In this document: piece by piece, positions 31,453-32,601 of the stretch | Layout of the letters: each line of letters begins with the position of its first letter | Position numbering within the stretch: position 1 is the first letter of the stretch | DNA from: an uncultured Clostridia bacterium | Lineage (GTDB): Bacteria > Bacillota > Clostridia > Christensenellales > UBA1242 | NCBI GenBank assembly: GCA_947589655.1 | Contig: CANQCE010000001.1 | Coordinates: forward strand, 1 to 46,347 | Length of the DNA: 46,347 bases | Direction: 5' to 3' | The notes under the pieces: generated by a model | Told to the model about the DNA's origin: nothing | What the model saw: the letters and a program-made list of their open reading frames with translations, nothing else | Database searches by the model: none | Program-made: the position numbers and the translations under genes

Positions 31453-32601
31453 TTATTTCTTTTTTGTAGTTTTTCTCTTTAAAACATAGCCGTTAAGTTC
31501 TTGGTTATATTTTTCAAATTCAGCCATCTCTTTTGGCGTTACACTTGGCGGCATGGTTTCAAGCACACGCGTGAAATCTTCGTTTGTGACTAAAACAACT
31601 TTGTCGGTGGCAATGGCCTTTAAAAGAGGCTCGTCTTTGGCACGGTCGCAAAGTTCTTCAATGTCGGCGCCGCTATAATTTTCCGTTTGCGCAACAATTT
31701 TGTCTATATCAAAATTTTTGGCAACAGGCACGCCCTTCATGTTCTTTTCAAGCATAAATTTTCTGGCTGGCGCATCTGGAAGTGGAAGATAAATTTTCTG
31801 CGAAAAACGGCCAGAGCGCATGGCGGCAGTGTCCACATCCCAAGGCCTGTTGGTTGCGCCCAAAAGCAAAAGATTTGGGTTTCTTCCGGCAAAGCCGTCA
31901 ATTTGCTGCAAAAACTCGTTCACGCGCTTATCGTTGTGTGTGTCAATTCCACGTTTGCCGAACAAGCCATCCATTTCGTCAATAAAAATAATTGCCCTGT
32001 CTTGTTTGTTGGCTTCTTCAAACAGGGAGTTTATGTTTTTCTCACTTTCGCCCACCCATTTGCTGACAATATCTGAGCCCTTTACAGCATAAAATTTGGC
32101 TTGTGCCTCGTTTGCTATCGCTTTTGCAATCATGGTCTTTCCAGTTCCCGGTGGACCATACAAAAGGATTCCGCCGCCCGATTTTTTGCCATACATTTTA
32201 TACTTTTCTGGATATTTAACAGGGTTCAGCATTTTTATTGTAATTGCCCTTTTAACATCTTCAAGGCCAGCAACATCATCAAAACTGATGTTTGGAATTT
32301 GTGCCGTCTGCCACTGCTTGATGTCTTCGTCTTGTTCCTGTTTTAAGTCTTTTTTCTCTTGTTTTGCTGCCTTTGTGCTGTTGCCAAGGTTATCCGAAAT
32401 TTTAACCAATCCGCGTGCCCTTTCCATGCGAACTTCTTTCAGTTTCCCTTGGCTCTGCTTTGCCATTTGCATCATTGTTTCGCTGGCGAGCAAAAAATTA
32501 CGCTTTGCCAAGGCAACATTGCCCTGATTTCGCGCCTCTTTGCCCTTTCTCATGTAAAGTTCAAATGTGTCAGAAAGCACATTGATGTTTGTTTCTTTCA
32601 T
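31453..32601 (-). CDS. Vps4-like (meiotic-clade) AAA+ ATPase with MIT-like N-terminal helical domain
   Basis: The ATG at 32601 lies 5 nt after GGAG. Walker A GPPGTGKT and Walker B IIFIDEMD. Pore loop [18 protein letters not shown] (compare Vps4 SKWMGESEK). [31 protein letters not shown] (compare Vps4 LGATNIPW...RRFE.RIYIPLPD). C-terminal [21 protein letters not shown] (compare the Vps4/spastin C-terminal helix SV...L..Y..W...FG). The N-terminal roughly 60 aa are helical and A/K/R-rich ([30 protein letters not shown]). Confidence 0.85.
   Translation of the reverse strand: [382 protein letters not shown]

Follow-up and report, generated by a model that had tools for sequence, protein, structure and literature searches.

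The window analyzed here, a 46,347-nucleotide (nt) stretch of contig CANQCE010000001.1 from an uncultured Clostridia bacterium, carries on its minus strand a compact operon of seven genes, one of which encodes a Vps4-like AAA+ ATPase (31453..32601). In operon order, the genes encode an SPFH/zinc ribbon protein of 270 amino acids (aa), two small proteins of 136 and 119 aa, two helical proteins that we call A and B, the ATPase, and a large protein of 1251 aa. The intergenic gaps range from -4 to 12 nt, and the genes for the 136-aa and 119-aa proteins overlap by 4 nt at 34188-34191; this overlap, together with gaps of at most 12 nt across seven genes, suggests translational coupling. Our analysis indicates that the operon is probably a bacterial ESCRT-III/Vps4-type membrane-remodeling module, possibly linked to envelope defense.

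The ATPase gene encodes 382 aa from its ATG; an alternative GTG start lies two codons further out, at 32607, and the open frame given in the list of open reading frames (ORFs) therefore runs from 31453 to 32607 and comprises 384 aa. Residue numbers refer throughout to the 384-aa frame. The 382-aa product is 100% identical to a database protein (P0001). An earlier sequence-only reading of this DNA, made from the letters and translations, had proposed the ORF at 31453-32601 as a Vps4-like ATPase; the ORF is real, and all the motif strings quoted in that reading are found in the translation. It is not a chance ORF, because hundreds of homologues at about 80% identity occur in metagenome-assembled genomes (MAGs) of gut Clostridia and diverged full-length relatives share 44-64% identity, the whole family spanning 44-100%. 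The homologues carry the names 'Clostridia bacterium' and 'Candidatus Caccovivens sp.', and the host is a gut Clostridia lineage. Pfam detects in the window protein an AAA domain (E 2.8e-41) and AAA_lid_3; Vps4_C scores 19.5 bits, slightly below its cutoff of 21.3, and PF09336 is among the precomputed Pfam matches of many close homologues. About half of the diverged homologues carry, after a low-complexity linker, an extra beta-rich C-terminal domain of ~110 aa that the window protein does not have; it occupies alignment columns ~500-614, ends in the conserved motif G(I/L)(E/D)ExD(L/F/M)G(I/V/L/F), and is present in P0246, P0250, P0254, P0258, P0262, P0264, P0268, P0278, P0281, P0291, P0297, P0315 and P0319.

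The N-terminus of the ATPase is a well-supported MIT-like bundle, on which four independent tests agree (PDB profile search, Pfam, structure prediction and hhalign). The three-helix N-terminus envisaged by the sequence-only reading was checked in an AlphaFold2 (AF2) model, which predicts helices at residues 3-27, 31-51 and 55-76 (residues 3-76, 32380..32601, minus strand) packed in a bundle at a predicted local distance difference test (pLDDT) score of ~90. The bundle is followed by a charged linker predicted to be disordered (residues 77-96, 32320..32379, minus strand; pLDDT <50), whose length and sequence vary across the family. A profile of residues 1-79, built from 22 aligned family members, was run against every PDB sequence, and MIT domains came out on top: that of Saprolegnia chitin synthase (2mpk) reached E 6.7e-4, those of Sulfolobus Vps4/CdvC (2w2u, 2v6y) E 0.025-0.08, and calpain-7 MIT stood lower in the same match list. 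Scanned singly, 11 of the 22 family members matched Pfam MIT, more than any other family (best 2.5e-4); the window copy alone fell below Pfam MIT detection. Compared by hhalign with an alignment of CdvC/Vps4 MIT domains, the N-terminus reached E 1.2e-7 at a probability of 94%; the reversed control reached E 0.0019. The NCBIfam CdvC model aligned over its full length (protein 11-369 against model 7-366 of 370). The MIT-linker-AAA-C-terminal-helix layout that had been proposed from the letters is thus borne out. In a Chloroflexi MAG (L002, region 3439-4364), the MIT-like N-terminus is partly duplicated: a copy of 103 aa lies just upstream of the full MIT-AAA gene and adjoins an ORF of 147 aa.

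The remainder of the protein consists of a single classical AAA cassette with its lid (31588..32310, minus strand; defined by Pfam AAA/AAA_lid_3 and invariant columns) and a Vps4_C-like C-terminal helix after the lid (residues 358-382, 31462..31536, minus strand; helical in the AF2 model). The AF2 model contains no beta-domain insert. Walker A (GPPGTGKT), pore loop 1 (KWVG), Walker B (IIFIDEMD), sensor-1 N253 within NRPW, and the arginine fingers R264/R267 are all present. D210, N253, R264 and R267 are invariant in the family alignment, in which Walker A and E211 vary little if at all; to judge from these residues, the cassette looks catalytically intact. Three motifs had been put forward as diagnostic of the meiotic clade (Vps4/CdvC, katanin, spastin, fidgetin, Msp1). 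Two of them are not diagnostic, because archaeal Cdc48 D2 has both an identical SKWVGESEK and the same C-terminal PSVxxxxxxxYExW helix. The third, N-x-P-W, proved specific, reading NRPW here and NKPW/NIPW/NFPW in CdvC/Vps4/katanin, as against NRPD/N in Cdc48, PAN and FtsH. An insertion of one residue follows the DG(F/L) motif, in the loop before the second region of homology (SRH); this insertion and N-x-P-W are derived characters that the ATPase family shares with Vps4/CdvC/katanin alone, the insertion also with spastin.

Two genes for proteins of ~200 aa lie directly upstream of the ATPase gene. The sequence-only reading had called both ESCRT-III-like, and for at least one of them, protein B, hhalign bears this out. 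Protein B (200 aa; 32614..33216, minus strand) is a candidate member of the ESCRT-III (Snf7-branch) superfamily on the basis of hhalign and its predicted helix layout. An alignment of 10 diverse B orthologues compared with eight eukaryotic ESCRT-III proteins gave a probability of 92% and E 6e-7, with reversed controls at ~0.5, and the alignment runs co-linearly over 149 columns, from columns 15-170 against 21-173, through alpha1-alpha5. Each of the eight references passes the Pfam Snf7 cutoff, and the seven looked up, Vps24 being the exception, are exact database sequences. By hhalign, the Vps2/Vps24/CHMP1-3 type is the closer one to B (E 4.5e-6), Snf7/CHMP4/6 reaching 2e-3. It also matches, at 95.5% and E 1.3e-8, a Chloroflexota Snf7-like protein that is encoded between two MIT-AAA paralogues and itself matches Pfam Snf7 at 2e-4 over residues 4-157 of 171. 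The AF2 model of B places helices at 7-48, 52-106, 112-150, 161-173 and 180-198, which is the ESCRT-III order, at a modest pLDDT of 68.7 from a shallow alignment. Pfam Snf7 is weakly matched by 3 of 12 B orthologues (best 0.0081) and is the most-matched Pfam family among them. Kinship of A or B with PspA was looked for and none was detected (for B, hhalign E 0.03, out of register); that null is uninformative at the superfamily level, because a eukaryotic ESCRT-III profile also misses PspA by the same method.

The last helix of B (residues 180-198, 32623..32679, minus strand), ENIDKEMEEIRKKIDSE, follows an acidic variable linker and is MIM1-like. Its pattern, I/L-x3-L/M/I-x2-L/I-(K/R)(K/R), is kept in most of the 10 diverse orthologues and is degenerate in L089; the consensus is (D/E)-x-(D/E)-I/L-D/E-K/R-x-L/M/I-x-E/D-L/I-K/R-K/R-x-I/L, the window version is ENIDKEMEEIRKKID, and the helix mirrors the MIM1 of CHMP2A, DLEERLKNLRRD (CHMP2A sequence verified). 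At the other end, A and B both start with an MG(L/I)F..K-type motif, in B MGIFKSK, comparable to MGLFGK in CHMP3. Taken together, these features make B a candidate ESCRT-III-like protein with a conserved MIM1-like tail.

Protein A (202 aa; 33220..33828, minus strand) is helical, with a possible ESCRT-III-like hairpin. Its N-terminus bears a hydrophobic/basic motif, and (D/E)D(D/E)xLxxFE is conserved near the C-terminus. Compared with ESCRT-III by hhalign, its E value improved from 0.0064 with seven sequences to 0.0015 with 10 and 1.1e-4 with 38 non-redundant sequences (57% probability), while the reversed control stood at 0.11. The alignment covers the alpha1-alpha2 hairpin only, in register (residues 20-96 against CHMP2A 24-106). 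A is possibly a second ESCRT-III-like subunit, the evidence for it being weaker than that for B.

The association of these genes is conserved. Ten loci fetched via diverged ATPase homologues have the same core, namely SPFH-zinc ribbon, a ~110-aa protein, A, B and AAA. A metagenome scan with B alone returned 51 loci at 45-91% identity; counting those whose contig reaches far enough, A is directly upstream of B in 43 of 45, SPFH is present in 32 of 33, and the family ATPase lies downstream of B in 34 of 37, the three exceptions being contig ends or inserted large-gene copies. Such insertions are a feature of a subgroup of loci (L107, L109, L111, L112, L114, L115, L117-L119, L123, L124, L126), in which the core is interrupted by one or two copies of a zinc-ribbon-TPR(-TIR) gene; the usual site is between the genes for B and the ATPase, that in L107 and L109 between those for A and B. 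The ATPase gene therefore does not always adjoin that for B. The first core gene in the window (34611..35423, minus strand) encodes an SPFH/Band_7_1 protein with a C-terminal double zinc ribbon (Pfam Band_7_1 2.3e-13, Zn_Ribbon_1 1.6e-13, DZR). The product of the second (136 aa; 34188..34598, minus strand) is small and helical and carries a transmembrane segment at its N-terminus; it represents the conserved ~110-aa operon component, whose orthologue sits between SPFH and A in all sampled loci.

Outside this core the partners vary. In the window, the gene downstream of the ATPase encodes the 1251-aa protein (27691..31446, minus strand), which combines an N-terminal zinc ribbon, TPR, a diverged TIR-like region (~residues 146-265, nt 30652-31011), helical repeats, transmembrane segments and C-terminal GLUG repeats (nt ~27694-28737). 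Its orthologue in L086 (BLASTP E 4e-19) aligns with it over the regions that Pfam calls TIR_2 (1.6e-9) and Glug; in the window protein itself the TIR-like region is too diverged for a Pfam TIR match. TIR_2 proteins occupy the equivalent position in L084, L086, L087, L088, L089 and L090. A large zinc-ribbon-TPR-TIR_2 protein, with or without GLUG, is the downstream partner in most loci, and BrxL-like Lon-type ATPases and zinc-ribbon trypsin-like proteases are found in some. Short zinc ribbons recur on three of the operon proteins, C-terminally in the SPFH protein and N-terminally in the TIR protein and in the trypsin-like protease (instances at 34611-35423 and 27691-31446 in the window, L082:4180-4956 and L084:1465-2214), and may represent a shared docking or recruitment module. 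The remaining small gene (119 aa; 33832..34191, minus strand) encodes a TPR-like protein with weak TPR matches; it is matched by a hidden Markov model of the N-terminal TPR region of the large protein, occurs in Caccovivens-type loci only (L092-L106 equivalents), and, from this similarity, has the look of a fragment split off or duplicated from the large gene.

From the domain architecture, homology, clade position and synteny described here, we infer MIT-MIM binding, polymerization, substrate threading and a physiological role in membrane remodeling. B, probably with A, would polymerize on the cytoplasmic face of the membrane via its N-terminal MG(L/I)FK-type motif, and the SPFH protein would perhaps organize the polymer. 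The ATPase would dock on the polymer, its MIT domain binding the C-terminal MIM-like helix, and hexamerize; subunits would be threaded through its KW pore loops, and ATP hydrolysis would in this way remodel or dismantle the polymer and reshape or reseal the membrane. These events may be coupled to envelope sensing or to anti-phage or other conflict responses, as the membrane protein with its TIR region and, in relatives, BrxL-like and trypsin-like genes suggest.

Several observations weigh against this reading. Neither the window copy of B nor that of A matches Pfam Snf7, and A has no Pfam or PDB match at all; an hmmsearch of A and B profiles against PDB returned chance matches only; and a Foldseek search with the B model gave nothing significant (best E 0.11), its non-significant top 50 including CdvB, CHMP1B/IST1, Vipp1 and an Asgard ESCRT-IIIB. 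The MIT-MIM binding proposed here is deduced from a MIM1-like motif at the sequence level. Such nulls would suit a more trivial explanation, in which the ATPase is a housekeeping classical AAA protein (SpoVK/FtsH/Cdc48-like) and the MIT and ESCRT-III resemblance of its helical N-terminus and coiled-coil neighbors is compositional chance; helical K/E-rich sequences do yield spurious profile similarity, as the E value of the reversed MIT control illustrates. For both MIT and B, nevertheless, forward and reversed searches lie 4-6 orders of magnitude apart, the MIT assignment draws on four independent methods, the alignment of B with ESCRT-III is co-linear over five helices, and the operon is strictly conserved across loci at 45-91% identity. 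We therefore find compositional chance scarcely credible.

Further points of this kind concern the cassette. Its best sequence match among solved structures is p97/Cdc48 D2 (203 bits, ~36% identity), which is also the closest fold by Foldseek (root-mean-square deviation 2.5-3.2 Å). NCBIfam scores are nearly flat (CDC48 222, CdvC 205, PAN 205, FtsH 196). The two-residue SRH deletion of the meiotic clade (LRR-RF) is absent in the family, which has MRSGRF or LRPGRF and so keeps the classical R(S/P)GRF segment. The CdvC score lies far below the equivalog cutoff of 650, a narrow test, since yeast and human Vps4 fall below it as well (244). Profile scores in fact cannot settle the clade, because in our calibration katanin preferred CDC48 over CdvC (263 against 212, a difference of 51 bits) and Vps4 favored CdvC by just 6-14 bits; NCBIfam and Pfam bit scores were dropped as a clade test after this calibration. 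Whole-model Foldseek and phmmer searches against PDB were likewise set aside, p97 entries swamping the lists so that Vps4 could not be ranked.

The position of the cassette was instead examined in a neighbor-joining (NJ) tree of 62 AAA cassettes (256 trimmed columns, simple distances, 300 bootstraps, rooted on FtsH). The taxa comprised 17 family members, five other bacterial MIT-AAA proteins, eight CdvC, Vps4, spastin, katanin, Msp1, archaeal and bacterial Cdc48 D1/D2, p97, PAN and FtsH; yeast Vps4, human VPS4B and Msp1 are exact database matches, and the spastin and katanin fragments were verified against PDB. The five bacterial MIT-AAA proteins (Chloroflexota, Phycisphaerae, Planctomycetales) were among the matches listed in a genome scan with generic AAA patterns; these listed matches were mostly Cdc48, FtsH and PAN, of use as references, and did not include the close family. 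The family alone received 91-94% bootstrap support, and the family plus four of the bacterial relatives (Chloroflexota/Planctomycetota MIT-AAA) 90-99%. The sister group of this bacterial clade consisted of meiotic proteins only in 85-92% of replicates, and of Cdc48 D2 only in 2-8%, while nesting with CdvC, with or without Vps4, was found in 0-4%. In that share of the NJ bootstraps (85-92%), the bacterial clade (Clostridia, Chloroflexota, Planctomycetota) thus stands as sister to the sampled Vps4/CdvC/katanin/spastin; it is not nested in Vps4/CdvC. On the other side, the joint bipartition with the meiotic clade reached only 50-60% with all taxa kept, rising to 92.7% after removal of the long-branch or rogue sequences L001a and Msp1, and the tree, built by NJ only, was made without euryarchaeal and Asgard Vps4.

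The placement among meiotic-clade Vps4 proteins that the sequence-only reading had offered is accordingly half right: the affinity with the meiotic clade stands, as a sister relationship, and membership alongside Vps4/CdvC, whose SRH deletion the protein also lacks, does not. We regard the ATPase as Vps4-like in architecture and probable function, rather than as a demonstrated member of Vps4/CdvC proper. Tree and motifs together are consistent with a lineage that diverged from a Cdc48-D2-like ancestor close to the base of the meiotic clade; an origin of Vps4 from such an ancestor has been proposed by Makarova et al. (PMC10936438). The Chloroflexota MAG L001 carries, at 1384-8617, an operon with two MIT-AAA paralogues and the Snf7-like protein mentioned above (Pfam Snf7 E 2e-4), together with a second coiled-coil protein, a PQQ-propeller/TPR/zinc-ribbon protein, and a Ser/Thr kinase that echoes the kinases of archaeal ESCRT loci; one paralogue (2244-3440) has the meiotic-type SRH deletion and the other (4146-5288) the classical RPGRL.

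The same tree bears on the idea that a canonical archaeal Cdv/ESCRT system was recently transferred into Clostridia, for example from gut methanogens, in which case the gene would be an archaeal Vps4/CdvC. The host is gut-dwelling, Ravi et al. infer archaea-to-bacteria transfers of Vps4-like ATPases (PMC11237479), and the Meth_adaptin ESCRT loci of archaea, found in Methanobacteriales, also carry a protein that combines SPFH, coiled-coil and zinc-ribbon parts (PMC10936438). Grouping with CdvC is, however, confined to the 0-4% of replicates given above, and the nearest relatives among the matches listed are bacterial (Chloroflexota and Planctomycetota, 36-42% identity, with the 90-99% clade support). 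The classical RPGRF segment is kept, the CdvC equivalog score is 205 against its cutoff, and the 44-100% identity within the family implies long residence in bacteria. On the present tree, a recent transfer from archaea is judged highly unlikely; an ancient one is possible, the tree having been built without euryarchaeal Vps4.

The last point against a membrane-remodeling module comes from the accessory genes, since partners of the TIR, BrxL-like and trypsin-like kinds would be in keeping with a conflict system, and the ATPase of such a system is perhaps not a polymer remodeler. The ATPase would then be a Cdc48-D2-derived chaperone, an unfoldase that regulates or feeds TIR NADase-like, BrxL-like Lon-type ATPase and trypsin-like protease effectors, with the helical proteins as adaptors or sensors and the MIT-like bundle as a generic docking domain. 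Genes with TIR_2, BrxL_N/BrxL_ATPase and Trypsin_2 domains adjoin the AAA gene in many relatives, the accessory gene content varies among loci as is typical of defense islands, and the closest cassette is that of Cdc48 D2. A search of PADLOC-DB 2.0 detected in the ATPase a generic AAA similarity to IetA/TRIP13 (131 bits for the defense ATPase IetA), but it found no catalogued defense system, and nothing for the six neighbors. The invariant core, moreover, is SPFH, small protein, A, B and AAA, and does not include the effectors, while the ESCRT-III similarity and MIM1-like tail of B would give the MIT domain a specific partner. The genes flanking the operon (pyruvate formate-lyase, ABC exporters, Cu/Zn superoxide dismutase, amidase, and a sulfatase-family gene) are housekeeping, for which reason a prophage or mobile island was rejected, and no relatives of B were found in viral contigs. 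We consider a defense unfoldase rather unlikely; the two readings are in any case not exclusive, as a remodeling module could itself be the defense output.

A membrane-remodeling module, for which the SPFH-containing protein of the archaeal Meth_adaptin ESCRT loci offers a parallel, remains the reading that we favor. In its fullest form, it would be a genuine bacterial ESCRT-III/Vps4 machine, vertically maintained in gut Clostridia, with relatives in Chloroflexota and Planctomycetota, and wired to SPFH and to TIR/BrxL-like/protease modules as a membrane-repair or abortive-defense device; this fuller claim we offer tentatively, with slightly more doubt than confidence.

Compared with known systems, the ATPase resembles Vps4/CdvC in its N-terminal MIT-type three-helix bundle, flexible linker, one classical AAA cassette and C-terminal helix, in the KW pore loop 1, N-x-P-W and one-residue insertion after DG(F/L) before the SRH, and in being encoded in an operon with one or more ESCRT-III-like genes bearing a MIM1-like tail; with CdvC it further shares the size of ~370-380 aa and the lack of a beta-domain insert. 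It differs in belonging to a separate bacterial sister clade, in R(S/P)GRF instead of RR-RF, in its CdvC score (205 against 650 bits), and in its operon partners, which are SPFH-zinc ribbon, TIR membrane, BrxL-like and trypsin-like proteins and not of the CdvA/ESCRT-II type. Cdc48/p97/VAT D2 has the highest pairwise sequence and structural similarity to the ATPase, and archaeal Cdc48 D2 shares with it SKWVGESEK, RPGRF and the C-terminal helix. Cdc48, however, has two tandem cassettes and a double-psi-barrel N domain, whereas the ATPase has one cassette and an MIT-like N domain, and Cdc48 D2 reads N-R-P-D/N where the ATPase family reads N-R-P-W.

Bacterial proteins with an MIT domain and a single AAA cassette have been described in one report. 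Ravi et al. 2024 reported Vps4-like MIT+AAA ATPases, such as Opitutus ACB74714.1, in Cyanobacteria, Bacteroidetes, Verrucomicrobia, Nitrospirae as well as Planctomycetes, Firmicutes and Chloroflexota not being among these taxa, and associated with a TPR+6TM protein in place of snf7 (PMC11237479). The ATPase described here differs in the partners with which it is coupled, namely one or more proteins of Snf7 type together with SPFH-zinc ribbon and TIR proteins. Our Planctomycetota/Phycisphaerae relatives L003 and L004, which group with the Clostridia family, probably belong to the Ravi et al. set.

B is like the ESCRT-III proteins Vps2/CHMP2, Vps24/CHMP3 and CHMP1 in its length of ~200 aa, basic hydrophobic N-terminal motif, predicted alpha1-alpha2 hairpin and alpha3-alpha5, acidic linker, and terminal amphipathic MIM1-like helix; it differs in falling below the Pfam Snf7 threshold, and its polymerization and membrane binding are putative. 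The operon also recalls PspA/Vipp1 systems with Band-7/SPFH partners (e.g. YdjI-PspA), in which a bacterial ESCRT-III-superfamily protein likewise stands beside an SPFH protein, suggesting membrane maintenance. Those systems, in contrast, have no MIT-bearing Vps4-like ATPase (PspF is of another AAA+ class), and B appears to lie on the Snf7 branch, not on that of PspA.

The operon thus pairs an MIT-AAA ATPase with a Snf7-type candidate, a pair that reviews restrict to archaea and eukaryotes; a 2025 review states that a Vps4-like ATPase "appears absent in bacteria" (PMC7619361). In our literature search, no paper was found on a Vps4-like/Snf7-type pairing in Firmicutes or Chloroflexota, or on its TIR/SPFH context. 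The operon is conserved in hundreds of gut MAGs and echoed in Chloroflexota. If our interpretation is right, it would offer a tractable bacterial model for ATP-driven ESCRT-III remodeling and would bear on the emergence of Vps4 from Cdc48. In the fuller reading, the Vps4-ESCRT-III partnership, with its Cdc48-D2-like ancestor, would either date from before the archaeal radiation or have arisen in bacteria. The TIR, SPFH, BrxL-like and protease partners would then suggest a link between membrane remodeling and bacterial immunity, in parallel to the ESCRT-mediated repair of membrane damage in eukaryotic cell death.

Two further features were noted in the window. Upstream of the SPFH gene lies the best sigma-70-like promoter match, TTGACT-18-TATACT with an extended TG (35459..35488, minus strand), which is a consensus match only. 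Farther downstream on the same strand, an ORF of 3842 aa (5612-17140), set in a chromosomal region that is otherwise ordinary, matches no Pfam family at E <= 1e-5 and is a giant orphan, possibly surface-associated.

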